Assembly: GCA_020632235.1 (NCBI GenBank)
Contig: JACKFY010000004.1
Location: forward strand, 4,811-68,810
Direction: 5' to 3'
From: Pseudomonadales bacterium
GTDB lineage: Bacteria > Patescibacteriota > Microgenomatia > UBA1400 > PJMF01
DNA: 64,000 nucleotides
A program made the translations under genes and the position numbers. Shown here piece after piece: positions 3,968 to 50,702 of the stretch. Position 1 is the stretch's first letter. Each line of letters starts with the position of its first letter. A model generated the notes under the pieces. The model saw nothing but the letters and a program-made list of their open reading frames with translations. It did not search any database and had not been told where the DNA came from.

Positions 3968-5008
3968 CTATGTTTTATCTACGTTCAGATTGTCATGTTG
4001 CACATGTTGGGACAGCACAAAGGTGCTGTAGAGAGCTCGGATAATTATATAGATAGGTATACACAGCAAAGCTCCCACCACACCACCCAGTGTGAGACCA
4101 ATGAGGATGATGATGATAGAAGCTAACGGGTTTACGTTTGCATTATCACTCATAATTTTAGGAACCAAAATATTATTTTCTACTTGTTGAATGATGATCA
4201 CCCCCACCAACACCGCGATGGCCAGTACCGGCCCACCACTAACGTAGGCAACAACCACACTTGGCACAGCAGCCAACGTAGGTCCAAGATTGGGAAGTAT
4301 CTCAAGTGCTCCAGCCACCAATGCAAGTGCAAGAGCGTACGGTACGCCCAAAAGACTGAGTACAATAAAGTTGGCAATGCCTATGACAAACATCAAAATC
4401 AGCTGACCGCGCACCCATCCGCCCAGTTGCTCTTCAATGTCATCTATTAAGCCTCGAATGGTAACTATAGTATCTACATTTCTCGTAATCCAGTAAAACT
4501 TCATGTAGAGTTTTTGCCTCCCCAGCATCATGTACATAGACAGCACTATCAGCGTAAAAAACATCAAGATGCTGCTAAACGTCGAGTTCACAATAGAGAA
4601 TAAGGTGGCAGCAGAACCAGAAAGTCGGTCGGCAATATTGCTGATATCGGTGAGCGTAAAGCTATAGTTTTCAAAGTGAAGATCAAGCCCTGGCACCTCT
4701 ACTTCTCTGATCAATCCATATCCCTGAGAAATGAGTGGTGGTAGCAGTACGATAGCCAGCAAGATACAGACAATGATGATCACTACGTAGGTGGTAAAAA
4801 TACTCACGAGTGGAGAGAGTCGCACCTTGTTTTGCAAAAAAAGTACGACGGGTCGCAACGCTACCATCAAGATAAACGAAAGTAAGACCAAGGCCACAAT
4901 GGCGCGAATGCTGTATAAAAAATAACCACCCAAAAGTATGCCTAACACCAGTAAGATACTTTCTGGAGCTATCACTACTGCATGTTTTGGCTTGAGTTTT
5001 TCAAGCAT
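3968..5008 (-). CDS. AI-2E family transporter (PerM/UPF0118-like permease)
   Basis: A 346-aa protein with the eight-TM topology and sequence pattern typical of AI-2E/YdiK-family membrane proteins. Confidence 0.75.
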   Translation of the reverse strand: MLEKLKPKHAVVIAPESILLVLGILLGGYFLYSIRAIVALVLLSFILMVALRPVVLFLQNKVRLSPLVSIFTTYVVIIIVCILLAIVLLPPLISQGYGLIREVEVPGLDLHFENYSFTLTDISNIADRLSGSAATLFSIVNSTFSSILMFFTLIVLSMYMMLGRQKLYMKFYWITRNVDTIVTIRGLIDDIEEQLGGWVRGQLILMFVIGIANFIVLSLLGVPYALALALVAGALEILPNLGPTLAAVPSVVVAYVSGGPVLAIAVLVGVIIIQQVENNILVPKIMSDNANVNPLASIIIILIGLTLGGVVGALLCIPIYIIIRALYSTFVLSQHVQHDNLNVDKT

Positions 5009-29844: not shown

Positions 29845-30261
29845 ATGGGAGCACTACCAAAAAATAAAATTACCAGAGCCGAGCGAGGCAAACGTCGCAG
29901 TGGCAACACACCCAGTATCACCAAACAAACCGCTCATCACTCCGTACCACGTCACAAGCGAGGATTTGTGGCACAGATACTAGCCAGCATGGGCTTGAAA
30001 AGCACGGATAGCACAAAGCAAGATACTGCGCAACAATCAACACAGGTTACTACTCCCAAGACCACAAAAAAAGTAGAGACAGGGCGCACAAAGAAAGCGG
30101 CCAGCAAAACAACAAAAAAACCAACCACTGCCAAGAAAAAAACCGCTAGCACGGTAAAAAAAACAAACGCTTCCAAGAAAAAAACTACCAAAACTACAAA
30201 GAAACCAGCTAAACCAACAAAAAAACCAACCACTACAGCGAGCGCAAAGACTAGTACGTAA
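29845..30261 (+). CDS. Ribosomal protein bL32-like N-terminus fused to a Lys/Thr-rich histone H1-like tail
   Basis: MGALPKNKITRAERGKRRS fits the bL32 pattern MxxPKxKxxRxxRxKRR. It is followed by an 80-aa KKTxKK repeat tail. Confidence 0.45.
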   Translation: MGALPKNKITRAERGKRRSGNTPSITKQTAHHSVPRHKRGFVAQILASMGLKSTDSTKQDTAQQSTQVTTPKTTKKVETGRTKKAASKTTKKPTTAKKKTASTVKKTNASKKKTTKTTKKPAKPTKKPTTTASAKTST

Positions 30262-34927: not shown

Positions 34928-35728
34928 TTAATTAACTTGTTGTATCTCTCCTTCTGCATACAGTGAGTAGTCCATAAATGCAGGAACAGCAGGTAGTATC
35001 CGCTGGGCAGACACGCTGTGCTGCTCGGTGCTGTCTGCACCCTCATTTGCAGTATTCCTGGCAGTAGAAACGATATCATGTGCCTGTACAGTGCCGATCA
35101 CTGTCGTAACCAAGTCGGTACCCGCGTACACGGGGTGCAGTCGCATCTTGAGTGGCGTGAGCGTTGACTGCAAAGGCACACTGTAGCTATTTTTGTACTC
35201 TCCTGATGAAATAGTAGTAGAGCCGTCAAAATCATCGCCTCGAGCATTTCCATTGTTATTATTGGGTTGGCCAATCGCGTGATACTCCACCAAACCATTG
35301 CTGTAGTACACCGCTGCAATAAGAGACGCTCTCTGGTTTATATCTCCTTCCTTTGCCCACTCAATGTCCAGTCGATCACTCGTAAAGCCCTCAAGTTGCA
35401 CCTCGGCTACCTCGCCCTCAAGCAACGATACTTCCAAGGTATCAGTGGGCGTAATGGTGTATGAGCCAGCTGTGTTTTGACCATCATCGGAAAATGAAAC
35501 TGTTTGGGGCCCTGCACCAACAGAAAAATTACCACTCTGCAGTGCTCGTTCTATCCCCGTCTCGGCTGCATTTAGCACCTTGGTTGACTCGCTTTGCTGA
35601 GTGGCTCTGCCCAAGTCATCACTGGTGCGCACCGCTACAGACAGCCCTACAGTCAGCACTACTGCCATTAAAAGTAGTACTATTACCGCAATTTGCCCAC
35701 GCTGCGAGTGTTTCTGACGGATCACCAT
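34928..35728 (-). CDS. PilX-like minor pilin / pilus assembly protein
   Basis: QRGQIAVIVLLLMAVVLTVGLSVA matches the PilX N-terminal hydrophobic segment. Start chosen at the internal Met (ORF track: 35794). Confidence 0.5.
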   Translation of the reverse strand: MVIRQKHSQRGQIAVIVLLLMAVVLTVGLSVAVRTSDDLGRATQQSESTKVLNAAETGIERALQSGNFSVGAGPQTVSFSDDGQNTAGSYTITPTDTLEVSLLEGEVAEVQLEGFTSDRLDIEWAKEGDINQRASLIAAVYYSNGLVEYHAIGQPNNNNGNARGDDFDGSTTISSGEYKNSYSVPLQSTLTPLKMRLHPVYAGTDLVTTVIGTVQAHDIVSTARNTANEGADSTEQHSVSAQRILPAVPAFMDYSLYAEGEIQQVN

Positions 35729-35820
35729 ACCATCTATACTATCCTGTATTGCCATGCAATTGCAATGGGTAGGTAGGTCATGTTGCTGATACACAAAAAA
35801 TACCCTACACTGAGTACACT

Positions 35821-37896
35821 ATGTTGAATACTCTGCGTACCAGATGGCAGTACATGAGCATGCGAAAGCGAATAAAGGCTCTCATTTCTGGCTTTTTTTT
35901 GCTCATACTCATGGTAACCGCTGTCTCGGCGTTAATTGTAGTGCAGCAAAATCAAGAAAACAGGCAAAAAGCATCAGAAATTGATGGCACTACCTGCAGC
36001 ATTGCTTCGTACGCTCAAACCGGCACAAACCTTGTTCCTACTACTATCTTTGATCCAAGTGAACCTATTATTTTTGCTATTACAGTAGAGCAGACTAGAG
36101 GTCCACTACCTATTATTGTAGACGACTATCTCCACGATTTCTTGGCTGCAGGCTACACCATTTCACCCCCACTCTACAGCCCAGAATGTACAGCGCCAGA
36201 GTTTCCCCACACCGATCCCTTTGTCTATCGCTGTAACTGGCTCACGGCCATTCCAGGTGGCAGCATGACCACCTACCTACAGCTCGCTCCACCTATATCG
36301 CCCAGCCCCTCCCTGCCTGGTCAAACCCTTACCAATCAAGTAGAGCTCTTGCCCTGCGAAACCTGTGGTGGACTCGGCAGGCCTGCTAGCTGGACACCCA
36401 CTGTGTCCGTCAATGCAGCAGGGATCAGCGACCCTTCTTGCAGTACCACCATCACCATAACAGAAGAGCCCGTGACGCTGGGTGGTCAAGCCTACTGCAT
36501 AGACCAAGCAACCGGCAACAAACAGTACCAACAGGGAGTACAGATAGGGGAGAGAGCTAGCGAGCACTGGAGCGTGACCACCGATGCAAACGGCAGGTGG
36601 AGCGTGACACGACCAGCAGCTGAAATAAACCCTGACAACTATGCCATTCGTCCGTTTGGTAACAGTGACTTTCCCTACGCTTCTGACGTTATGACAACTG
36701 GTGTAAGCGGTATTTCTTGCCCAGATAGTAATATTGAGGGGCCAGAGCTCACACAAAACAATACTGCGGTTGTTGAGCGGGCTGCTGGCAGCTGCGGCAG
36801 AGCGCTGCCACTCGATACCCTAGATTTCAATTTGGGCTACTGCCCTGCCAATACTACGCCTGGAGTGCAGTGTGACTCTGTCTGCACGCCACCCAACACT
36901 CCAGCAAGTAGTGAAGAAATAGGTGCGCCAATTACTGATGAGTGTGTCCAAGCACTGGGGTCAGAGTATGCCTGCATGCCTGTGGGCACCGAGTACCGCT
37001 GCAGACTCATTGCCGATCCAACGAACGCCAGCTGCAACATCGCACCCACCCCCACCTACTACGACGGCTGGTGGCAGAGTAGAGGAGGACTTGTCTACAG
37101 CGCCCTCGCACTGACCAACGAAGTTCACCAAGACGCCAACCCACTCTTTGGTCTGCTAGCAAGATCATACATAGGTAGCGTCAATCCGAACTCCAGTGGT
37201 ATCGCCCGTGTAGGCAGCACTATTGTCACTTTTGGCAACGCCCAGCCCACCCAGCGAGTACGATCTCAACAAATGGCAAGTGGTAGCGATGCTCTCTCTC
37301 CGCCTAGTCTCACCACCACTATTTCTACCATACTTGCTAACAGTAGCGCTGCTCGTAGCCTTCCTAGCACCCTCACCCAAAAGCCCACAGACTGCACACC
37401 ACTTGATGGTGCGACTGTCTGCACAGCAACAGGCCTCCTGACCATTGATGGCGAACGCTGGATCGTAAACCCAGGGGAAAAGCTTATTATCGTTGTCGGG
37501 GGTGATGTACGCTTTGCGGGCAGTAGAAAGCAAGCTATCTGGCTACAAGACGGTGGCTTTTTTGCCCTGATTGCCAGCGGCACCATCACCTTTGGCGGTG
37601 AGCTGGGCAGCACCGACCACCAGCCGGGTCAGCCAGACGTCCCCCAAACAGACAACTACACTGCTGGTGGCGTGTACCTGGCGGGCCACAACATCGTAAT
37701 AGAGCAAACCAGCCAAGACACCGACAAACAGTTCGTAGGAAACGGCGTCTTTGCCGCAGGCGGGAACATACAGCTGCAGCGCTCATTAGCCTTTGATGGC
37801 AACACCCACCCTGCTAGTCTATTTGTCTACAACCCCCAGCTGTTACTCAATGCTCCTGATTTCTTCTTGGAGGGTTCGGTGGAGTGGCAGCCGTAG
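35821..37896 (+). CDS. Large Cys-rich surface protein (691 aa) with an N-terminal TM anchor and a conserved C-terminal beta-solenoid-like domain shared with the 1070-aa paralog
   Basis: N-terminal TM at RKRIKALISGFFLLILMVTAV. The C-terminal roughly 330 aa begins DGWWQSRGGL and ends NAPDFFLEGSVEW, aligning with the tail of 40188..43391. Confidence 0.65.
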   Translation: MLNTLRTRWQYMSMRKRIKALISGFFLLILMVTAVSALIVVQQNQENRQKASEIDGTTCSIASYAQTGTNLVPTTIFDPSEPIIFAITVEQTRGPLPIIVDDYLHDFLAAGYTISPPLYSPECTAPEFPHTDPFVYRCNWLTAIPGGSMTTYLQLAPPISPSPSLPGQTLTNQVELLPCETCGGLGRPASWTPTVSVNAAGISDPSCSTTITITEEPVTLGGQAYCIDQATGNKQYQQGVQIGERASEHWSVTTDANGRWSVTRPAAEINPDNYAIRPFGNSDFPYASDVMTTGVSGISCPDSNIEGPELTQNNTAVVERAAGSCGRALPLDTLDFNLGYCPANTTPGVQCDSVCTPPNTPASSEEIGAPITDECVQALGSEYACMPVGTEYRCRLIADPTNASCNIAPTPTYYDGWWQSRGGLVYSALALTNEVHQDANPLFGLLARSYIGSVNPNSSGIARVGSTIVTFGNAQPTQRVRSQQMASGSDALSPPSLTTTISTILANSSAARSLPSTLTQKPTDCTPLDGATVCTATGLLTIDGERWIVNPGEKLIIVVGGDVRFAGSRKQAIWLQDGGFFALIASGTITFGGELGSTDHQPGQPDVPQTDNYTAGGVYLAGHNIVIEQTSQDTDKQFVGNGVFAAGGNIQLQRSLAFDGNTHPASLFVYNPQLLLNAPDFFLEGSVEWQP

Positions 37897-37992
37897 GGCT
37901 ATTCCCCTTGTAAGGGGAGACGTCCCGACTTTAGTCGGGGCAGATGGGATGCAAGCTTCCTGTAATGCTCGTAATGTACACTGCGCCCTTGT

Positions 37993-38061
37993 GGGGACGC
38001 CACTGGCTGTGGAACCGTGTCTACGGAACTTGGTTTGCGAGTTCGATTCTCGTCGTCTCCA
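37993..38061 (+). other. tRNA-Ala-like fragment (acceptor stem with G3.U70 and canonical T-arm, but no cloverleaf in the 5' half)
   Basis: GGGGACG...GCGAG-TTCGATT-CTCGT-CGTCTCC-A. A perfect GGAGACG partner also lies at 37919-37925. Confidence 0.35.
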
Positions 38062-38159
38062 CAGGAAAAACTGTTTACTACTTGAAATACAGAGAAAGCA
38101 GAGTAAAATGAATGTCAATTCGTAGACGCGGTTATTTCATACCAATGGAAACCAATCAA

Positions 38160-38190
38160 CCCCTCACCAGCTGGTGAGGGGTTTTGTTTG
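38160..38190 (+). terminator. Rho-independent terminator
   Basis: CCCCTCACC-AGCT-GGTGAGGGG-TTTTGTTTG. Confidence 0.55.
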
Positions 38191-38233
38191 TATCCCCTCT
38201 TTTCAAGAGGGGTGTCCGTCAATTGACGGAAGG

Positions 38234-38347
38234 GGTGTTTAGCATCTCCTCTTTTCAAGAGGGGCATCCTTCACCTGAAAGGTGAGAGGGTGAGGTGTTT
38301 AGCACTCCCTTTCGTAAGGGGACAGGGACATCCCGACTTTAGTCGGG
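38234..38347 (+). repeat. Multi-hairpin structured element E, copy 1 (candidate ncRNA or repeat)
   Basis: Hairpins CCTCTTTTCAAGAGG, CCTTCACC-TGAAA-GGTGAG, CCCTT-TCGT-AAGGG and CCCGACTTTAGTCGGG, plus two GGTGTTTAGCA spacers. It is homologous to 44013-44131 with compensatory stem changes. Confidence 0.5.
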
Positions 38348-38448
38348 GGAGAGGGGTTTCCCTATTGCATTCCAACGTCTCATAGTATATTATGAGAGAT
38401 AGTGTGTTGTAGTAGCGGTATAAACAAACAACACACAGAAAACAAACC

Positions 38449-39678
38449 ATGCTGTTCCCATTTTTTTTTGAAGCGGAAGGTGTTAAACCAGTAAACCCTG
38501 ACGAGCTCGCTGCTGGTCAACCACAGATAGTAGCTGAACAAGCGTTGCCTCATGCCATAATTGCGGAACTACAACGAGCTCCAATTACTCTAGCTCCTTC
38601 CAGTGGCAACACTGCTACCCAAGGAGGGGAGGCAGCTGTGTTTGAAGCAGAAAATCAGCAATCAGCTATTCCGCCCTTGGAATTACCATTTGGTCCCCAG
38701 TATATTTCTCCAGAAAGACAGCGTGGGACTGAAATCACTGTAGCTCCGACAATCAACCCAGAAAATATTACCTGGGCACGACAAAATAACGGGATCGCCG
38801 ATATCATCTATGTGCCTACTGGAACAAGTGAAGAAAAGGCTAAGCTAAGAGAACTCTTCGAAAGTACGTGGCTTACTCAACTACAATCATCCCTACCTTA
38901 CTTCAGACATGGTTTTACTGGTTTAAATATTGGAGTCTGGGGAACCTATGATAACGGGCAGCCTGCCTTGCAACGACCCGACTTAATCATGCAGGCTGGT
39001 AAAAAATATGATGGAGACGTTCATCCAACAAGGGAAACAATTATCATCACTATTTCACTCGCTGGTGCAAATAATTTTTCTCAAGATGATTTGGTGATGG
39101 GTTCAGCTTACCAAGAAAATAATGTTGTAGCTGTGCAGGTTGACCGTGGATATGAGGGAAGAAATAACTATGCTTCATATACAAATGAGGCTTTTTTATT
39201 TCAATTAGGCCAAGCCGTTCGGCATGAAATCGGTCATATATTTGGACTTGAGCATGGACACAATGTGGGGGAATATAGCAATCAAAGCCTGGGCATTGCA
39301 GACTTTTATCTCAAACCAGAAGGTACATATACTCAAGAAGGAGGGTTTATCAAAGTTGATCTTGGCCAACTAGATTATACCTCAAATAGAAGTGGGGGAA
39401 ATGAGGTCATAGCTTATGTTTCTTGGCTTACGATGAAGCGTATAGCAACTGATGGTCAACATGTGTTTTTGCGAAAAATTGGTCCTCTAGGTGGTCGAGA
39501 TATCTATAGAATTCAGTATAGAGGAACTATAGAAAACTACCTTGATGTTTGGTTTCAAACTTACGATGAAACATTTCTTCAACAAAAAACATCACAAGTT
39601 GAACAATCACCACGCATTCCTCGCTCCAAAGTTGCTCGCAAATCCAATGTAGATTTGTCAGGTAAGAGAATAAGCTAA
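38449..39678 (+). CDS. Metzincin-type zinc metalloprotease
   Basis: VRHEIGHIFGLEHGHN matches the HExxHxxGxxH metzincin signature. There is no obvious signal peptide at the called start. Confidence 0.7.
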   Translation: MLFPFFFEAEGVKPVNPDELAAGQPQIVAEQALPHAIIAELQRAPITLAPSSGNTATQGGEAAVFEAENQQSAIPPLELPFGPQYISPERQRGTEITVAPTINPENITWARQNNGIADIIYVPTGTSEEKAKLRELFESTWLTQLQSSLPYFRHGFTGLNIGVWGTYDNGQPALQRPDLIMQAGKKYDGDVHPTRETIIITISLAGANNFSQDDLVMGSAYQENNVVAVQVDRGYEGRNNYASYTNEAFLFQLGQAVRHEIGHIFGLEHGHNVGEYSNQSLGIADFYLKPEGTYTQEGGFIKVDLGQLDYTSNRSGGNEVIAYVSWLTMKRIATDGQHVFLRKIGPLGGRDIYRIQYRGTIENYLDVWFQTYDETFLQQKTSQVEQSPRIPRSKVARKSNVDLSGKRIS

Positions 39679-39730
39679 AAATAACTTCTTCTACTTGTCT
39701 TCTTCCTCTTGGCTGGCGTATAGTGTAGTC

Positions 39731-40198
39731 ATGTGGCGTTATATAAAAATAGGTGTAGTTTTTCTCGTTATTTTTTGTGTTGGAATAGGTGGGGCGTATG
39801 TAAGTTTTTCTCAGATTATTCCTAATAAGAACTATGGTAAAAATCAAATCGCCGGCGATAAAATAGTTAAAGACCAAGAACCAACCAATCAAAATGGTCA
39901 ATATATTGCGAGAGGAAAACTAATAAGCTTTATTCCTGAACTAATTATAGTTTCAATTAATAACCAAAAATACTTTTTAAATGTTACTTCTAAAACAAAG
40001 TTTTTTATTTCTCATGTAGATCATAGTGATGGACTAAGTGGTGATCTCATAGAGAACAAAGATATAAGCATGCGTGATTTTGAAAATAAAATTTTAAATA
40101 CTCAACCTTTATTTGTATCGATTGTGTATAAAGAAAATGATACAAATGATGTGAATCAAAAAGAAGCAATTTTTATTAATGCTGCATATGATAAGTAA
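39731..40198 (+). CDS. Hypothetical small membrane-anchored protein (AT-rich gene)
   Basis: MWRYIKIGVVFLVIFCVGIGGAYV TM anchor. AT content is markedly higher than in neighbouring genes. Confidence 0.35.
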   Translation: MWRYIKIGVVFLVIFCVGIGGAYVSFSQIIPNKNYGKNQIAGDKIVKDQEPTNQNGQYIARGKLISFIPELIIVSINNQKYFLNVTSKTKFFISHVDHSDGLSGDLIENKDISMRDFENKILNTQPLFVSIVYKENDTNDVNQKEAIFINAAYDK

Positions 40199-43100
40199 GT
40201 CATTAAAAAAAATATTTACCTCTATATCAATTTTTATTGTTTTAACAATTACTCCAAGTCCTGTGCACGCAGAGTGTTACTTAGTATATGATGACTTTCA
40301 TCCCGGCGCTCCTGCAAACTGTCATGCTTATGCAGGGTGTGTAGACAGCTCGCCTCCAGGCTCAAGTAAAAATGAATTTATTTGCGAACTAGATGGCAAT
40401 GGTAATTGGGGATATAGGCATTATCACTACAGTGGTTACGGGAGTTTTTGCTCCTGCGGTGGAAGTGGAGGTGGCATCGTCCACTCTCACTTCAACGCCA
40501 CAATCACCGATCAAAACGGGCAGTACTACACGGTAGACAGTTGTAACGGCGGGGGCAATGGAGCTAACATAAGTGTGAGTGGCTCTGATGCATCTATTGA
40601 GGCAAAATGCGACACCACCCAGGCTGGCATGCCAGAGGGTCACTTTTCAGGAAAGGCAGAAGAAAACACTGATGCTACCTTTACCATGTCACAATTCCCC
40701 ACAGGCTTCATGTGCACTGGCTGGGAAGTGGTGCAAGGCGTGAACGGTACAAACCCTGGTGCATGGGTTGCTGGCCAAAGTACGACAAATTGTCAAACAA
40801 GCGCTGTCAATGTAGGTGATAACGACCACGACATAGAGGTGCACTTCCAAATTGAACCCATCCCCACACCCACACTCTCCCTCTCATGCAACAGCAACGA
40901 CCAAGTGGTGGTCAACTGGAGTAATGTAGGCACGCCGTTCTACCATATTCGTCTAGATACAGACCCTTCTTCTTGGAATGGAGACTGTAGCAACCCCAAC
41001 AACAGAGACATCTGCAACAACCAATACTACGACACTAACTATACCATCGGCAGTACTGAAAATAGAAACTATCACTTTTGGGTGCATGGCGCCACCGATA
41101 CTACCTTTGGGTCAGCAGGGACGATAGAGTTCAACTACCAGGACGTCTACGAGCAACAATGCATAGAGTACACCTCGTTTGATGCCATAATAGTGGGTGG
41201 AGACTTGCGCCATGGCCAAATCCCCCCCAGCAGCAGCTGCAGTACGGCGCAGAACTCGGGCATAGGTGACATCCAGTTTTATGCACCCTATAGCAGCCAA
41301 GAGTGGCTGTGTGGGGGTGACGGTAAGGTCTACGCCCGCCTTACTACCGAATCAAACAGAAACATCAGCGCCCAGACCCAACCCCCCAACGGGTATGTTT
41401 GTGATGGGTGGGAGATGCTTGATGCAAGCAATGGGTATAATCAAATTGCCTTTGGGGGACCAGGAGACTGCGGGCCTGAAAACTACACCATGCAGCACGG
41501 GGTGAATAGATTGCTCGTACTAAAAGTGAGGCAAAAAGCAGAAATAAACACTATTCTGACAGACAACACCTATCGCTATGGCTTCATTCCTCCTGGCGCA
41601 GCCTGCAATACCAATCTCAATGTGCAAGGAGGAAGTATATTTTATAGTGGTACTGGAAATCCGATGGGCCAGTGGATGTGTGGTGGTGATGGTCTGTTAT
41701 TTAGTAAAATCACCACAGATGTAAATGAAAATATATCTATCCAAGCCACCCCGCCGCCCAACTTTTCTTGTAATGGCTGGCGCTACACCGATAATAACGG
41801 CACTCAATCAGGACCTGGATGTGGACCATCTACTCTTTCCCCTGCGGCTAATCTTAACAGCACACTGGTACTAGATGTGCAGCCAAACCCCAGCAACACC
41901 GGCATCTGTGGCGATGGCACCATCCAGTCACCCAACAGCAACGGCGTGTATGAAGACTGCGATGACGGCAACACGACTGATTGGGATAGCTGTCATAGTG
42001 ACTGTACGCTGGAAACCTACGCTATCGGCTCTGTGGTTGATGACGTGGGAAAGTACTATGGCCCCTCATCACTCTCGTGTGCAAACGTATCTAACCCAAA
42101 CTATGGGGGAGAGGCTACTTTTACAACATCTATGGACTCCGTGCAGTGGAGTTGTAAAGCAGATGGGAAAATATTTGTCGATATGTATAGTCATCCCTAC
42201 ACCGATGCTGAGAGCATCACTGTGCAGAACGTACCCCCAGGCATTCAGTGTAGCACTGATGTAGACTGGTTTGTGCTAGGGGATACTACAAACTACTCTG
42301 GCACAACATGTAGTGCTACCAACCTTACAGGGAACAAACAATTTGACCTCCAGTTTAATATCGCCACAGACCCCACAGCGCCTCAACAGTGTAATCAATC
42401 ATGTAGTATTGACGATGACTGCGCGACAGGGCTATCGTGCGTAGGTGGAATGTGCACAGGGAACTCTTGCCCCACCTTTACCAATCCACCCACCCCAACA
42501 CCTACTCCTCCTACCGGCCCGGTTATAGACGGCTGGTGGCAGGTGAGGGGAGGGCTTCTTTTGAGCAATGATAATTTTACAAATCCAATTGCGTCTTCAG
42601 TCTTGCGATTTTTAATGATAGCCACAGACCCATCCAACGAACTAACTGCTGGCATCCCCATTGCTCCAAACGGTTTTGATATCGACGTCAATAATGAACC
42701 CACCCAGAGAGAAAAACCATACCAAGCAGCTACCACTGGCGCCAACCCTCACGCAGAGATTTCAAAAGCCAAAAACGCACTGCTCAAAAAAGCAGAGGAG
42801 CTCGTAGGCTCTAACGCCCACTCTACCCCCATGTCTGAAAAGCCCTCCTGCACCCCAATTCCGGGCACAACGTCTGGTGCAAGCGAGGGTGGTGAAACAG
42901 AGGGGGCAGCCGCCACTGAGACAAGTATTTGTTATGTTGACGGAGACCTCACTATCTCCAATCCAACCACGTGGAGCATTGACGCAGACGAAAACCTCAT
43001 CATCGTAGCAAAAGGCGACATTGTATTTAGTGGCACAGCGCCCCTGAACACTATTACACCTGGTGGGTTCTTGGGCTTTATAGCAGGTGGCACCATTACG

Positions 43101-43391
43101 TTTGAGGAAGATATGGGCAATACCACCTCTCAACAACCCAACACACTCACCCCCACGCCCACCGTACACGCTGTTTTTCTGGCAGACTCCATTACTATAG
43201 ATGGCGAACCTACAGGAAACGGACAGTTTGTGGGCAAAGGTGTGTTTGCAGCTGTGAACGACATTATGCTGCAGCGCAAACTTTCTGCCGGTGGTGATGA
43301 GTACCCTGCCAGCTACTTTATCCACGACTCACTCTTGGTACAAAACGCCCCAGATTTTTTCAAAAGTACTCGCCTGGAATGGGGAAAATAA
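40188..43391 (+). CDS. Giant secreted Cys-rich repeat protein (about 1067 aa) with a Sec signal peptide, internal roughly 120-aa Cys modules, a Myxococcus-type CxxCDDGN repeat, a Pro/Thr linker and the shared C-terminal domain
   Basis: Signal peptide MISKSLKKIFTSISIFIVLTITPSPVHA-E. Repeats W.CGGDGK..(R/K)(I/L)TT(E/D).N.NIS.Q..PP....C.GW occur at least three times. CGDGTIQSPNSNGVYEDCDDGNTTDWDSCHSDCT. The C-terminus DGWWQVRGGL...NAPDFF...EW aligns with 35821..37896. Confidence 0.7.
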   Translation: MISKSLKKIFTSISIFIVLTITPSPVHAECYLVYDDFHPGAPANCHAYAGCVDSSPPGSSKNEFICELDGNGNWGYRHYHYSGYGSFCSCGGSGGGIVHSHFNATITDQNGQYYTVDSCNGGGNGANISVSGSDASIEAKCDTTQAGMPEGHFSGKAEENTDATFTMSQFPTGFMCTGWEVVQGVNGTNPGAWVAGQSTTNCQTSAVNVGDNDHDIEVHFQIEPIPTPTLSLSCNSNDQVVVNWSNVGTPFYHIRLDTDPSSWNGDCSNPNNRDICNNQYYDTNYTIGSTENRNYHFWVHGATDTTFGSAGTIEFNYQDVYEQQCIEYTSFDAIIVGGDLRHGQIPPSSSCSTAQNSGIGDIQFYAPYSSQEWLCGGDGKVYARLTTESNRNISAQTQPPNGYVCDGWEMLDASNGYNQIAFGGPGDCGPENYTMQHGVNRLLVLKVRQKAEINTILTDNTYRYGFIPPGAACNTNLNVQGGSIFYSGTGNPMGQWMCGGDGLLFSKITTDVNENISIQATPPPNFSCNGWRYTDNNGTQSGPGCGPSTLSPAANLNSTLVLDVQPNPSNTGICGDGTIQSPNSNGVYEDCDDGNTTDWDSCHSDCTLETYAIGSVVDDVGKYYGPSSLSCANVSNPNYGGEATFTTSMDSVQWSCKADGKIFVDMYSHPYTDAESITVQNVPPGIQCSTDVDWFVLGDTTNYSGTTCSATNLTGNKQFDLQFNIATDPTAPQQCNQSCSIDDDCATGLSCVGGMCTGNSCPTFTNPPTPTPTPPTGPVIDGWWQVRGGLLLSNDNFTNPIASSVLRFLMIATDPSNELTAGIPIAPNGFDIDVNNEPTQREKPYQAATTGANPHAEISKAKNALLKKAEELVGSNAHSTPMSEKPSCTPIPGTTSGASEGGETEGAAATETSICYVDGDLTISNPTTWSIDADENLIIVAKGDIVFSGTAPLNTITPGGFLGFIAGGTITFEEDMGNTTSQQPNTLTPTPTVHAVFLADSITIDGEPTGNGQFVGKGVFAAVNDIMLQRKLSAGGDEYPASYFIHDSLLVQNAPDFFKSTRLEWGK

Positions 43392-43946
43392 ATGAAACAG
43401 CACCACTCTGCTGGGTTTACTCTCATTGAGCTACTCATCGCCACAGCATTAACCGCATTTATCATGGTTTCTGCATCGTACCTACTGGTCTCAACACTCA
43501 GCGCTCGCGGCAAAACGGCAGTCAGGCAGACACTCAAGGCAGAGGGGCAGTTTGTCCAAAACCAAGTAGACACAGCCCTGCGTAGTGCCAAAGCACCCAT
43601 CACCTGCATTACAGATGAAGAAACAGGTGTCGCCTCCACCATTCTCTTTTACAACTCTGCAGGCGAAGCGCACCAGTTTTCCCATCAGCCGCTAGCTGCG
43701 GTAGGCACTCCAATAGACGCCATTTATTATGACAACGACATTCTTGTGTCAGATGCGGTGACCATCACCGATCTTTCATTTCGCTGTGAAAACGCGCGAA
43801 CAGACAGAACTCAAGTGGGCGGTGGTAGCGACGTCTACATCACCACCACGTTCCAGGTGCATAACAAAGATGCAAGTGGTGGAGCGGGCGAGATCTATGA
43901 GTTATTTCGCTCTGGTGTGCTCATCCGCAACACCATCGGCCAGTAG
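43392..43946 (+). CDS. Type IV pilin/pseudopilin with a class III signal
   Basis: MKQHHSAG-FTLIELLIATALTAF prepilin cleavage/methylation motif. Confidence 0.8.
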   Translation: MKQHHSAGFTLIELLIATALTAFIMVSASYLLVSTLSARGKTAVRQTLKAEGQFVQNQVDTALRSAKAPITCITDEETGVASTILFYNSAGEAHQFSHQPLAAVGTPIDAIYYDNDILVSDAVTITDLSFRCENARTDRTQVGGGSDVYITTTFQVHNKDASGGAGEIYELFRSGVLIRNTIGQ

Positions 43947-44358: not shown

Positions 44359-44889
44359 CTAATACTGCGCAAACTCTCGGCGTAGCGTTACTTCACGCTC
44401 CTGCGTACCAATGCGCCAGGTGGTTGTCACCAACACCGTGATAGTGCTGCCAGTATTTTCTTCAACTTCTAGCTCTCGGGTAAACTCTGCTCGCAGGTCA
44501 TCATCCATCAAAAATGAACAGGTGTATGCCTGTTGACCAAATGGTGACGTCCAATTAATAAATGCATCTTCTTGTAAAGAGCCATCATCTGTCAAACAAA
44601 TAGTTTGACTTTCTGGTAGTTCATCTGAAAATGCCTGCCAACCATACACGGCACGCGATCGCTGTAGATACTCCATCACGTGTTGTGACTTGGCAGTTGC
44701 TACCTCGCGCATGCGCGCCTCGGCCGAGTTCCGCACACTTTGGGTGAGCACCATAGCAATACCTGTCAACATAATGCCAGAAATAGCCACCGCCACCAAT
44801 ACTTCTATCAGGCCGATGCCAGCTGAGTGGCGTTTTAGTCGAGCAACACGGTCTTTAAAGATCATGGAGATTCCCCTCAGAAGTAACAC
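44359..44889 (-). CDS. Pseudopilin / minor type IV pilin
   Basis: RHSAGIGLIEVLVAVAISGIML variant prepilin motif (G-IGLIE). Confidence 0.65.
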   Translation of the reverse strand: MLLLRGISMIFKDRVARLKRHSAGIGLIEVLVAVAISGIMLTGIAMVLTQSVRNSAEARMREVATAKSQHVMEYLQRSRAVYGWQAFSDELPESQTICLTDDGSLQEDAFINWTSPFGQQAYTCSFLMDDDLRAEFTRELEVEENTGSTITVLVTTTWRIGTQEREVTLRREFAQY

Positions 44890-45442
44890 CTCTACTTCCT
44901 ACCGCAAATGAGTACTCAAGCGTGTCAGACTGCAGACGCACAACACCACCAGAACCAGGTAGGTTGATAACAACATCTAGACCGTCAACAAGGTACTGCA
45001 CATTTCCTGTAGTATGCAGTGTTGCCAGTCCATCAAAATCTACAAAAACCAAATTATCGTATAACACAACAGCGCCGCCTTCCACACAAGACGCATGCAG
45101 TGCTGCACTACTTCCCGAAAGACTTACTTCATACCCAAGTAGTTGGTCGCCTACATCAAGGCAGTCTCTAGGCGTATCCATCGCTTGCACTCTGCGCTGT
45201 GCCTCAAGAAACAGCCCTCGCACCTCTTCCCCAACAGCCCCTACTTTCCTACGCTCGTTAAATGAAATGTACCCCACCAACCCTCCACCTATCAAAACAG
45301 CAGAGATGGCTATGACCACCATCAGTTCGATAAGAGTAAAGCCCCCTCGATGTAAAGAAAAAACATTACTGGCTGGTCGCACAGTAGTACCCTCCGCTAC
45401 CTGCCATATTGCAAACATTATTGCTGTTGCTTTTGTCATCAT
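44855..45442 (-). CDS. Pseudopilin / minor type IV pilin
   Basis: LHRGGFTLIELMVVIAISAVLIGG prepilin motif. The leader is long as called, so the true start may be internal. Confidence 0.65.
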   Translation of the reverse strand: MMTKATAIMFAIWQVAEGTTVRPASNVFSLHRGGFTLIELMVVIAISAVLIGGGLVGYISFNERRKVGAVGEEVRGLFLEAQRRVQAMDTPRDCLDVGDQLLGYEVSLSGSSAALHASCVEGGAVVLYDNLVFVDFDGLATLHTTGNVQYLVDGLDVVINLPGSGGVVRLQSDTLEYSFAVGSRGVTSEGNLHDL

Positions 45443-45788
45443 TTTCTAGATCAGCGCAGAGACAGTACACACCACCAACAGAATAAGAGTAATGATAGGG
45501 AGTTGTTGCTCCTGGGTCAACAGGATAGGGATTACTGAGATACCCACCACTTACAAGTTGTACAACCATATTGACATACCCATTATTTATAGCAATAGGG
45601 TACCCTCCTTCTTCAGATCGATACAGTGCTAACGCCTGGCGTACTGCTTCGATGTCTGCCATGCGCTTGCTGTCACGACTGGCTTTACTCGCGTTGCTGT
45701 ATGACACAAAGCCGATGCCCATCAGTACGGCAATGATGGTCACGGTCACGAGTAGCTCAATCAGGGTAAAACCACGTTGTTGTTTCAT
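45366..45788 (-). CDS. Type IV pilin (GspG/PilA-like)
   Basis: MKQQRGFTLIELLVTVTIIAVLMGIG followed by the ASRDSKRMADIEAVRQALALY pilin block. Confidence 0.8.
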   Translation of the reverse strand: MKQQRGFTLIELLVTVTIIAVLMGIGFVSYSNASKASRDSKRMADIEAVRQALALYRSEEGGYPIAINNGYVNMVVQLVSGGYLSNPYPVDPGATTPYHYSYSVGGVYCLCADLENDDKSNSNNVCNMAGSGGYYCATSQ

Positions 45789-45809: not shown

Positions 45810-46241
45810 CTACTGCAAGTTTTTGACACAAAATGCAGAGCCGTCACTCCCACTTGTAAAGCTACAACCAGCATCTGCATTTCCATTTCTGTTTTCTAAC
45901 GCAGCACATGCGCAGTAGTCATATGCTGCACCAGTACCTGTACTCGCGCAGCTGTACACAAATACCCCTGTATTCTTTGGATCTTGAGGGTTTGCCGGCA
46001 ATTCTTCGGAAAGCACGGACGCAGAGCAATCACGAGCATACTCACCATTCACCGCGTAGTACTGCTCTTGGGCAGTTTGGATAGCCTTCATGTCAGCCCG
46101 GCGCTTGGCGTCTCTGGTGCCCTTTTGGGCATTGGTGTAGGCCGCCATTCCCATCGCCATCAAGATACCGATGATAGACACCACTACCAATAGCTCAATC
46201 AGGGTAAAACCACGCATGGATGAGAGTAATTTTTTATGCAT
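45810..46241 (-). CDS. Type IV pilin (GspG/PilA-like) with a Cys-rich C-terminus
   Basis: MHKKLLSSMRGFTLIELLVVVSIIGILMAMG followed by the TRDAKRRADMKAIQTAQEQYY block. Confidence 0.8.
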   Translation of the reverse strand: MHKKLLSSMRGFTLIELLVVVSIIGILMAMGMAAYTNAQKGTRDAKRRADMKAIQTAQEQYYAVNGEYARDCSASVLSEELPANPQDPKNTGVFVYSCASTGTGAAYDYCACAALENRNGNADAGCSFTSGSDGSAFCVKNLQ

Positions 46242-46293
46242 ATAAACCAGCATAGACTACTGGTTTCCGTCGCGCAACTAGCACCAGAAAAAC

Positions 46294-46872
46294 TCACTCC
46301 GTCAAAGCATCACGGGAGGAAGAAAGCTCTGAACCATCCCACACAATAAAGATATGTTTTTGAAAAAAACGAGTCCATTGCGGCAGGTTTTTGTAGAGCG
46401 TTTCAAATGAGACAAGCTCTAGAAAGGATGGCTCGTCACCAAGTACGAGAGAATCGGAGTCTAACACAGCAAAAAGGCTGGGAGGCAACTCACCCTCATA
46501 CACTGTTTGTCTGTTTTGTGCATACGGATAGCACTCTGCCTGGATCAAAAACTGGCGCTCGTCTTCAAACACAACCGAGTACTGTGTTGACACAGGGCTA
46601 AAGGTGTACTCAGAGTTAGTGGTCAGGTCTCGCAGGTACTCAGAGCAAGACTCCACACCACTGCTTTGGGCAGTCGTAATACTATCTATAAATGAGCGGA
46701 TGCCAAAAGAAAAAATTACTTGCTGTGTCAGAAAAAATACGACAATACTACCAACGCTAAGACACGCTATCCAAAACAAAACATATCGCAGTACACGCAT
46801 GTCAAAAGTATGCAAAAGAAAGCCAGGGTCGTCAAGTATGTGCCCTACATACCAAGCTGTGAAAGATACCAC
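46294..46872 (-). CDS. Hypothetical membrane-anchored protein within the pilus locus
   Basis: The internal Met MRVLRYVLFWIACLSVGSIVVFFL gives a single TM. No motif recognised. Confidence 0.35.
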   Translation of the reverse strand: MVSFTAWYVGHILDDPGFLLHTFDMRVLRYVLFWIACLSVGSIVVFFLTQQVIFSFGIRSFIDSITTAQSSGVESCSEYLRDLTTNSEYTFSPVSTQYSVVFEDERQFLIQAECYPYAQNRQTVYEGELPPSLFAVLDSDSLVLGDEPSFLELVSFETLYKNLPQWTRFFQKHIFIVWDGSELSSSRDALTE

Positions 46873-49628: not shown

Positions 49629-50702
49629 CTACTCTTTCACTTGACTTGTTTTGTTAAGCAATCTATCCATATCGTCTTTACGAAATGAGTACTCTTGGGC
49701 AACCAGCGACGAAATACTACCCTGCTGCACTAGTGTCTGCAGGTGGGTTTCCAAAAGCATCATCTGCTTGCTGGCAGACGTCTGGATAACATTATCAATT
49801 TGGTAGGTCTTTGCCTCGCGGATTAAGTTGCGAATAGCAGGCGTTCCCAACATAACTTCGAGGGCTGCAGTACGCTTGCCATTCAAGGTCGGCACCAGCC
49901 GTTGTGACACAATGGCTTGTACAGTAGAGGCAAGCTGCTGGCGCACCTGAGACTGCTGGGCAGCAGGAAAGACATCGATGATACGGTCTATGGTCTGGGC
50001 TGCAGTGGCCGTGTGAAGCGTGGCAAACACCAGGTGGCCCGTTTCTGCCACCGTGATGGCAGAGGCAATTGTTTCAAAATCACGCATTTCGCCCACCAAC
50101 ACCACATCGGGGTCTTCGCGCAGAGCAGATTTGAGTGCAATATCCCACCCGTGAGTATCTTGGGTTATCTCCCGCTGAGAAATAACACTTTTTTGTGGCT
50201 CGTACACAAACTCAATTGGGTCTTCAATGGTCAAGATATGCTCAGCACGCGCATGATTAATCTCGTTGATGATCGCCGCCAAACTGGTCGACTTTCCTTC
50301 ACCCGTAGGGCCAGTGATCAAGATAATACCTTGTTTGTACTGAGTAAAGTCATGAAACACTTTGGGTAGGTGTAACTCTTCGAGTGTCTTTATTCTATTG
50401 GGAATGAGGCGCAAAGCAGCAGAGAGTCCCCCTTGCGACAAATACACATTAACGCGAAATCTTCCCTTATCCAAGTACTGGTAGGCAAAATCAAGCTCTT
50501 TGTTGACCTCCACATAGTCTTTTTGCTCTTGGGTTAACAAAGGGTGAATGAGCGTCTCACTCTGCTTTTCTGTCAAAACAGGTGCCCCATCGACTGGCTT
50601 GAGAACACCCTCTACTCGAATAGTAGGCGGACTCCCAGGCACAATATGAATGTCAGAGCCTTCGCTATCGATCAGTTGTTGGAGTATGTCAAATGTGTTC
50701 AT
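49629..50702 (-). CDS. pilT: Twitching-motility (retraction) ATPase PilT
   Basis: Walker A GPTGEGKSTSL, His box, and the 357-aa length typical of PilT. Confidence 0.85.
   Translation of the reverse strand: MNTFDILQQLIDSEGSDIHIVPGSPPTIRVEGVLKPVDGAPVLTEKQSETLIHPLLTQEQKDYVEVNKELDFAYQYLDKGRFRVNVYLSQGGLSAALRLIPNRIKTLEELHLPKVFHDFTQYKQGIILITGPTGEGKSTSLAAIINEINHARAEHILTIEDPIEFVYEPQKSVISQREITQDTHGWDIALKSALREDPDVVLVGEMRDFETIASAITVAETGHLVFATLHTATAAQTIDRIIDVFPAAQQSQVRQQLASTVQAIVSQRLVPTLNGKRTAALEVMLGTPAIRNLIREAKTYQIDNVIQTSASKQMMLLETHLQTLVQQGSISSLVAQEYSFRKDDMDRLLNKTSQVKE

Follow-up and report, generated by a model that had tools for sequence, protein, structure and literature searches.

In ComZ of Thermus thermophilus, a GspK-like pilin, a large solenoid is inserted ahead of the last strand, and an ice-binding protein was found to be the closest relative of this solenoid (PMC6561018). 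All cyanobacterial PilX homologs are reported to carry the same ice-binding-like solenoid, and this has been proposed to replace PilY1 as a 'tip plug' where PilY1 is absent (bioRxiv 10.64898/2026.02.12.705559). In Thermus, the large gene TTHA1220 also adjoins the gene for the GspJ-like TTHA1219 (PMC5131608). Here, we describe two large proteins, A and B, which share a C-terminal domain (the tail) and are encoded in a type IV pilus locus of a candidate-phyla-radiation bacterium, on contig JACKFY010000004.1 of assembly GCA_020632235.1. The whole stretch of 64 000 nucleotides that was analysed (positions 4811 to 68 810 of that contig) is referred to as the window, and coordinates are given relative to it. 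The fold predicted for the tail is already known, as are the concepts of a solenoid associated with the tip and of a tip protein other than a pilin. The new feature is that the solenoid is found on a separate polypeptide and not within a pilin.

Proteins A and B share a C-terminal domain

Protein A (35821..37896, plus strand, 691 amino acids (aa)) and protein B (40179..43391, plus strand, 1070 aa) are in the list of open reading frames (ORFs) for the window. An earlier reading of this DNA, referred to here as the original prediction, had recognised both, with exact coordinates for A. For B, the start given there (40188) is an in-frame ATG at the fourth codon of the ORF, which begins three codons earlier, and the signal peptide is retained with either start.

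The C-terminal domain that had been proposed to be common to A and B was recovered in a pairwise BLASTP alignment of residues 415-689 of A and 784-1068 of B (34 % identity, E=4e-32). The tail covers residues 415-691 of A (37063..37893, plus strand; family hidden Markov model (HMM) E=9.4e-72) and residues 784-1070 of B (42528..43388, plus strand; family HMM E=6.6e-75). Its length is therefore ~277-287 aa and not the 330 aa originally estimated. The tail opens with DGWWQxRGGL, directly behind a Pro/Thr linker, and closes with NAPDFF....EW, 2-3 residues before the stop. Every conserved block quoted in the original prediction was present in the alignment of A and B, namely these two motifs and, between them, NLIIV..GD..F.G, GGTITF, QFVG.GVFAA, LQR and PAS.F. 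The conserved positions are mainly Gly, aromatic and hydrophobic residues, and the invariant ones are Gly, Phe, Pro and Trp together with a single Arg, which points to a structural or binding role rather than catalysis.

Ahead of the tail, the two proteins are unrelated (best E=2.8). Protein A, which is annotated by NCBI only as 'hypothetical protein', has an N-terminal hydrophobic anchor or signal at about residues 14-42 and a cysteine (Cys)-containing variable region from 43 to 414, with the tail starting at 415. In B, a Sec-type signal peptide (residues 1-31, ending VHA/E) is followed by Cys-rich modules, a Myxococcus-type repeat, a Cys knot with the Pro/Thr linker, and the tail. The overall Cys content is 2.6 % in A and 3.6 % in B. 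The variable region of B (40461..42374, plus strand) was divided using pairwise BLASTP between modules. At least three Cys-rich modules of about 120 aa had been reported for B; the modules are real and number four, m1 (residues 95-228, 40461..40862), m2 (residues 325-455, 41151..41543), m3 (residues 452-570, 41532..41888) and m4 (residues 608-732, 42000..42374), all read from the plus strand. The E values are 2.7e-24 for m2 and m3, 7e-7 for m2 and m4, and 7e-6 for m1 and m2. The single Myxococcus-type repeat, also noted previously, is at residues 577-613 (41907..42017, plus strand) and scores 28.5 bits with TIGR02232, above the cut-off of 20.8. Pfam DUF4215 gave 20 bits on B, which is under its cut-off of 27.

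Neither A nor B has an N_methyl match in Pfam or a class III prepilin signal (G/FxxxE with a hydrophobic α1), and PHROGs contained no match for A, B or the two ORFs that lie between them.

The tail family

A profile built from the two tails was run exhaustively with HMMER against 1.84 billion cluster representatives (50 % identity clusters). It matched 985 clusters at E≤1e-3, of which 406 were also found at E≤1e-10. A word-indexed homolog search with the tail of B recovered B alone. Membership of the family was defined as a significant match to the ~285-position family profile at the extreme C-terminus, which includes A and B. In 180 of 184 collected members, the tail is within 10 aa of the C-terminus, and the median Cys content in these 184 is 4.9 % ahead of the tail versus 0.7 % in the tails. 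Family proteins range in length from 320 to 1603 aa, and the shortest complete member (P0053) consists of a signal peptide and a tail with nothing between. Sec-type signal-peptide-like N-termini were found in 93 of 142 members, and a prepilin motif in none of the 142. Many members finish with W-(Q/K/R)-E-(V/T)-N or -AP.

Most of the family is from Patescibacteria, with some members from Chloroflexota. The named sources are Woesebacteria, Pacebacteria, Paceibacterota, Beckwithbacteria, 'Patescibacteria group', an Aggregatilineales metagenome-assembled genome (MAG) and one uncultured Chloroflexi contig. The Aggregatilineales (Chloroflexota) contig, CBDCER010000003.1 (3.68 Mb), includes three tail genes (L004, L007 and L008) for proteins of 775-806 aa, two of which have tails that are 85 % identical and lie ~90 kb apart. 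There is no pilin or pilus-machinery gene within 10 kb of any of the three copies, and hence the family reaches beyond Patescibacteria and is not always linked to pili. A protein identical to A has been deposited under 'Pseudomonadales bacterium' (MCB9802305.1), and 'Candidatus Woesebacteria bacterium' is the label on a fragment of it. Among related MAG contigs, many bear the titles 'uncultured Pseudomonadales' or 'Gammaproteobacteria' though their gene content fits Patescibacteria loci (L001, L006, L011-L013, L019, L022 and others). These Pseudomonadales and Gammaproteobacteria labels look unreliable, and since all the named relatives come from Patescibacteria, the label to trust is Woesebacteria.

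The only curated family to give any signal was Pfam DUF7305 (PF23981), which maps to the tail core and spans ~100 of the ~280 tail residues. The score was 27.1 bits for P0176 (cut-off 27) and 26.3 for P0177, and several other members gave faint matches. The tail of B reached 12.9 bits (E=0.11), below the cut-off, and that of A had no match at E≤1. Judged by sequence, the tail is only remotely related to DUF7305. DUF7305 was not mentioned in the literature searched. The tails in the window were under every curated Pfam and NCBIfam threshold, and PDB sequence and profile searches with tail profiles returned only noise. Calling the tail novel, as the original prediction did, nevertheless goes too far: its predicted fold is known, some members reach DUF7305, and ~1000 clusters carry it.

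Predicted fold of the tail

A model of the tail of B was obtained with AlphaFold2 from a 25-row alignment (predicted template modelling score (pTM) 0.76, mean predicted local distance difference test (pLDDT) 70.5). In the model, the conserved WWQxxGG start leads into a variable loop and a long helix, and the β-solenoid core (~42921..43388) follows. The 20-residue helix and the β-solenoid that follows it (residues ~77-280) are confidently predicted; the variable loop (23-75) and the last seven residues are not. The model agrees with the original prediction, in which a β-solenoid had been suspected. The modelled tail has the right-handed β-helix and flanking α-helix of the DUF3494/IBP-1 fold (PDB 3wp9 and 4nu2), and the predicted fold is thus the known ice-binding-like β-helix, which is also found in ComZ and in the cyanobacterial PilX tip pilins.

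This likeness is confined to structure. In Pfam scans, the DUF3494/Ice_binding sequence model did not match A, B or 24 tails at E≤1, and no ice-binding protein was found in profile searches of PDB sequences. The tail also differs from DUF3494/IBP-1 proteins in its genomic and organismal context and in adding the conserved WWQxxGG start and a W-x-E C-terminal peptide, and nothing indicates ice binding.

The C-terminal peptide, model residues 284-290 of the B tail (~43368..43388), includes the near-invariant W-x-E (often WQEVN or WQEVAP in the family) and is unpacked in the model, with pLDDT <50. An unpacked peptide of this kind would fit a segment that folds only against a partner.

Tail genes are recurrently paired with a GspJ-class pilin gene

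In the pilus locus of the window, Pfam detected PilM, PilO, a prepilin peptidase, PilC, PilB, six prepilin-type genes and a weak PilX_N-like gene. One of the prepilin-type genes (43392..43946, plus strand) directly follows B, with its ATG at 43392 immediately after the TAA of B. It encodes a 184-aa minor pilin of the GspJ/PilW class (the partner pilin) with a prepilin leader, Glu5 and an N_methyl match of 28.9 bits. The partner pilin is predicted to have a GspJ-type fold, with an α1 helix and two β-sheets, and its model is closest to the type II secretion system (T2SS) pseudopilins GspJ, XcpW and EpsJ. With the gspJ equivalog TIGR01711, it scored 17.3 bits (N-terminal helix only) against a cut-off of 64.85. 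GspJ/PilW-class pilins are core subunits of the tip complex.

The original prediction had raised the question of whether homologs elsewhere are also next to pilins, and many are. One genome per GTDB species was scanned with a degenerate pattern, which yielded 38 loci with tail genes. In 12 of these (L002, L005, L012, L014, L017, L021, L022, L025, L029, L033, L036 and L037), a co-oriented prepilin gene encoding 171-197 aa has its start between -35 and +62 nt relative to the tail gene's stop, frequently with an overlap, and the pilin is homologous to the 184-aa pilin in the window. Downstream of the pair are the same minus-strand minor pilin genes and pilD, pilC, pilT and pilB, and upstream are pilM/N/O and a PilX_N-like gene. 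Pilus genes are nearby in three further loci of the 38. The reverse test, starting from three members of the pilin family on long contigs, found the tail on the product of the gene directly upstream in all three of these independent contexts (E=1e-67 to 1e-70). Tandem tail genes, as in the window, were present in nine loci.

A proposed role at the pilus tip

Our preferred interpretation, to which we assign a probability of roughly 0.55, is that A and B are Sec-exported non-pilin proteins in which the solenoid joins the pilus-tip complex and the variable N-terminal part is displayed. Both would be exported by Sec and would consist of a variable, Cys-rich N-terminal 'business end' and the conserved C-terminal ice-binding-like solenoid. 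Attachment to the type IV pilus would be through the solenoid, which would bind the complex of minor pilins that primes the pilus and forms its tip, probably via the GspJ-class pilin that is co-translated with B, and extension of the pilus would then show the variable part at the tip. The variable N-terminal part is the probable binding end, with the modules contacting a ligand or host, and the dispersed paralogs could be alternative tip proteins. The analysis shows the shared domain and its family, the predicted fold, the Sec-type N-termini and the gene pairing, whereas docking to the pilin, location at the tip, adhesion by the N-terminal modules and an episymbiotic lifestyle are inferred. 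A further step, in which the tail is a trans-acting docking module that uses the co-translated GspJ-class pilin to load interchangeable Sec-secreted Cys-rich proteins, both the pilus-locus copies and the dispersed paralogs, is more tentative, and we regard it as possible rather than probable.

Because tail genes are paired with the gene for a GspJ-class pilin in many genomes, the best-supported role is a PilY1-like one, namely that of a non-pilin protein encoded among the minor pilins. The original prediction had suggested that A and B are PilY1/PilC analogues. This stands insofar as B, like PilY1/PilC of Proteobacteria, is a large non-pilin protein with a Sec signal that is encoded among minor pilin genes. 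In both cases there is a conserved C-terminal domain and a variable N-terminal part, and both are proposed to be part of the minor-pilin priming complex and to be shown at the tip. However, there is no homology. The C-terminal domain of PilY1 is a β-propeller and the tail is a predicted β-solenoid, no Pfam or NCBIfam match to PilY1/PilC was found in A or B, and the tail family, unlike PilY1/PilC, has many copies outside pilus loci.

ComZ (PDB 6qvi) and cyanobacterial PilX resemble the tail proteins in that the gene adjoins genes for T2SS-pseudopilin-like minor pilins, here the GspJ-class pilin gene right after B, and in being found in lineages without PilY1 (bioRxiv 10.64898/2026.02.12.705559). 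They differ in that their solenoid is inside a GspK-like pilin and the protein is itself a pilin, whereas the tail proteins have no pilin module and end in their solenoid, which is preceded by long Cys-rich regions that vary. Neither A nor B has a β-solenoid between the last two strands of a GspK-like pilin fold, and no sequence similarity between ComZ and the tail was detected. PilX1 and PilX2 of the Saccharibacteria strain TM7x are also large pilus-locus proteins of a Patescibacterium that have no PilD-type signal, carry accessory domains and are proposed tip adhesins, and PilX2 is needed for efficient host binding (PMC11623550). These are, however, pilin-like 'lollipop' proteins with a jelly-roll or β-propeller and not a β-solenoid, they belong to another lineage, and no relation to the tail family was found. 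In the literature searched, the combination seen here (Sec-secreted Cys-rich proteins that end in a detached solenoid, coupling of their gene to that of a GspJ-class pilin, and ~1000 Patescibacteria/Chloroflexota clusters) was absent, and nothing linked DUF3494/ice-binding folds to the pili of Patescibacteria.

A number of findings weigh against a role at the tip. Apart from the Myxococcus-type repeat, nothing in Pfam, NCBIfam or the PDB sequences matches the variable N-terminal parts of the two proteins. Foldseek gave nothing at E≤1e-3, the fold of the tail is more like that of ice-binding proteins than that of ComZ, and β-solenoids are common scaffolds. No pilin start is adjacent to A, which apparently has its own terminator. 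In addition, the link of the tail to pilus loci, which had been part of the original prediction, holds as a recurrent pairing with a GspJ-class pilin but is not exclusive. Of the 38 loci, and counting only those with enough flank, about 20 lack any gene for a pilin or for pilus machinery over distances of up to 10 kb; the three Chloroflexota copies are all among these. Pilin-linked and dispersed tails did not form separate clades but were intermixed in distance clustering. The tail may therefore have a more general role. It could be a surface-anchoring or self-association domain (binding the wall or the surface layer (S-layer), or stacking through its β-helix) that is independent of pili, with the position in the pilus locus due only to co-regulation. 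As well as fitting the loci that are not linked to pili, more than half of those sampled, and the intermixing of the tails, this would account for the strict C-terminal position behind variable extracellular regions, a layout shared by many anchoring and sorting domains, and for the conserved Gly, aromatic and hydrophobic residues that point to a structural role. However, it leaves unexplained why members of one minor-pilin family are directly downstream in the window, in 12 tail-seeded loci and in all three pilin-seeded contexts, when a random neighbour would belong to the partner pilin family about once per genome. The nearest pilus-related structural precedent, ComZ, is also a tip subunit, and we consider general anchoring unlikely.

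It is similarly doubtful that A and B are cargo, that is, that the pilus-like machinery is a T2SS-like piston which pushes Sec-exported proteins through the wall or S-layer, with the solenoid as a recognition module engaged only transiently by the tip, including the GspJ-class subunit. T2SS substrates are known to contact the GspK-I-J tip, and the partner pilin is nearest in predicted fold to T2SS pseudopilins. The many paralogs that combine unrelated N-terminal 'payloads' with one C-terminal domain, many of them encoded away from the pilus locus, would be typical of the substrates of one export route. Set against this, Patescibacteria are thought to be monoderm and no secretin was seen at the locus (not every ORF in the window was scanned for one), and the classical need for a T2SS is hence absent. 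Tight translational coupling to a single structural subunit suggests a stoichiometric complex and not enzyme-substrate logic, the locus includes the PilT retraction ATPase typical of true pili, and the pilus-linked precedents for the fold, ComZ and PilX, are structural tip components. An activity of the tail itself, either DUF3494-like ice binding or antifreeze activity, or cleavage of glycans as in β-helix lyases and tailspikes, by which host surfaces would be attacked or remodelled, is very improbable and was rejected as the main explanation. There is no DUF3494/Ice_binding or lyase family match at E≤1, the invariant residues do not include the acidic or basic cluster typical of a catalytic site, and the conserved pairing with a pilin would again be unexplained. 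For ComZ too, the likeness to ice-binding proteins was without functional meaning (PMC6561018).

Other features of the locus

The genes in the window are arranged with pilO, a pilN-like gene, pilM and the PilX_N-like gene on the minus strand, followed by A on the plus strand. After A are a hairpin, a 409-aa ORF, a 167-aa membrane ORF, B and the 184-aa prepilin gene. Beyond these are four minus-strand prepilin genes (44359..44889, 44855..45442, 45366..45788 and 45810..46253), with N_methyl matches and prepilin motifs, then pilD, another pilin gene, pilC, pilT (49629..50702, assigned from its position and its resemblance to the T2SSE genes of related loci) and pilB. Hence, A and B do lie between a pilX-like gene and minor pilin genes, as had been described, though the PilX_N match on the one side is weak.

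The PilX_N-like gene (34928..35794, minus strand), which is divergent from A, has a longest ORF of 288 aa and matches PF14341 with E=3.6e-3, below the cut-off. The product is probably a tip subunit of the GspK/PilX type, and it lacks a canonical prepilin motif. Its relatives are in the same relative position in L017, L021, L029 and L036, and one adjoins the tail gene in L038. A terminator-like hairpin (38158..38183, plus strand; 11-bp stem with 7 G-C pairs), found in a consensus scan only, is ~260 nt past the stop of A and probably ends the A transcript.

The 409-aa ORF (38449..39678, plus strand) includes a metzincin-type zinc motif, HEIGHIFGLEHGH, at 39223..39261, and has sub-threshold matches to zincins (Peptidase_M54, E=7e-4; archaemetzincin, E=9e-6). 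No obvious signal peptide is present at its called start. Going by the motif, this putative protease encoded between A and B could process both surface proteins. The 167-aa ORF (39695..40198, plus strand) has an N-terminal membrane helix and runs with its stop into the start of B. A sharp GC trough (39100..40300), where the GC content is 0.29 at 39700-40299 and ~0.50 on either side, takes in the last part of the 409-aa ORF and all of the 167-aa ORF. Since tblastn found no relative of either ORF in the 38 related loci, this low-GC stretch may be a lineage-specific insertion.

In L022, L029, L036, L037, L039, L042 and L043, the pilin-linked tail gene is directly preceded by a gene, overlapping it by 4-14 nt, for a protein of 189-202 aa with a single membrane helix at its N-terminus. 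This arrangement suggests a three-gene module of a small membrane protein, a tail protein and a GspJ-class pilin. The 167-aa ORF in the window is alike in position and topology but was not assigned to this membrane protein family because there is no detectable homology (HMM E=0.06).

Pilin-seeded loci contain a second large unannotated gene at the position of A (2438..4543 in L039, 2901..4523 in L041 and 2535..4589 in L043), encoding 540-701 aa with no Pfam match and no tail. It could represent another, unrelated family of surface proteins in pilus loci. In the same three loci, an unannotated gene of ~333 aa is found where the window has a 192-aa ORF (46294..46872, minus strand), which lies between the minor pilin genes and pilD and has no Pfam match. 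Elsewhere in the window, a 138-aa ORF (29845..30261) starts like a small basic ribosomal-type protein and ends in a long C-terminal extension of low complexity, in which Lys, Thr and Ala are abundant (TTKK and KKPT repeats).

Implications

Type IV pili are near-universal in Patescibacteria and, in Saccharibacteria, they are required for attachment to the host (PMC11623550). A and B are good candidates for parts of the pilus that touch the host, and the family provides concrete, testable candidates for host recognition across Woesebacteria, Pacebacteria and related lineages, each combining a conserved handle, linked to a defined tip pilin, with an outer part that is hypervariable and rich in disulfides. 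About 1000 clusters of 'hypothetical' proteins gain a domain definition and a working hypothesis. In lineages without PilY1, an ice-binding-like β-solenoid at the pilus tip is an emerging pattern; the family would also extend this pattern, as its solenoid is the first to be carried by a polypeptide of its own that is not a pilin. If the tail does prove to be a docking module, it would be a 'split' counterpart of the solenoid that is built into the ComZ and PilX tip pilins, and Patescibacteria and some Chloroflexota would have a modular, polymorphic system of tip adhesins that sets host or substrate specificity.

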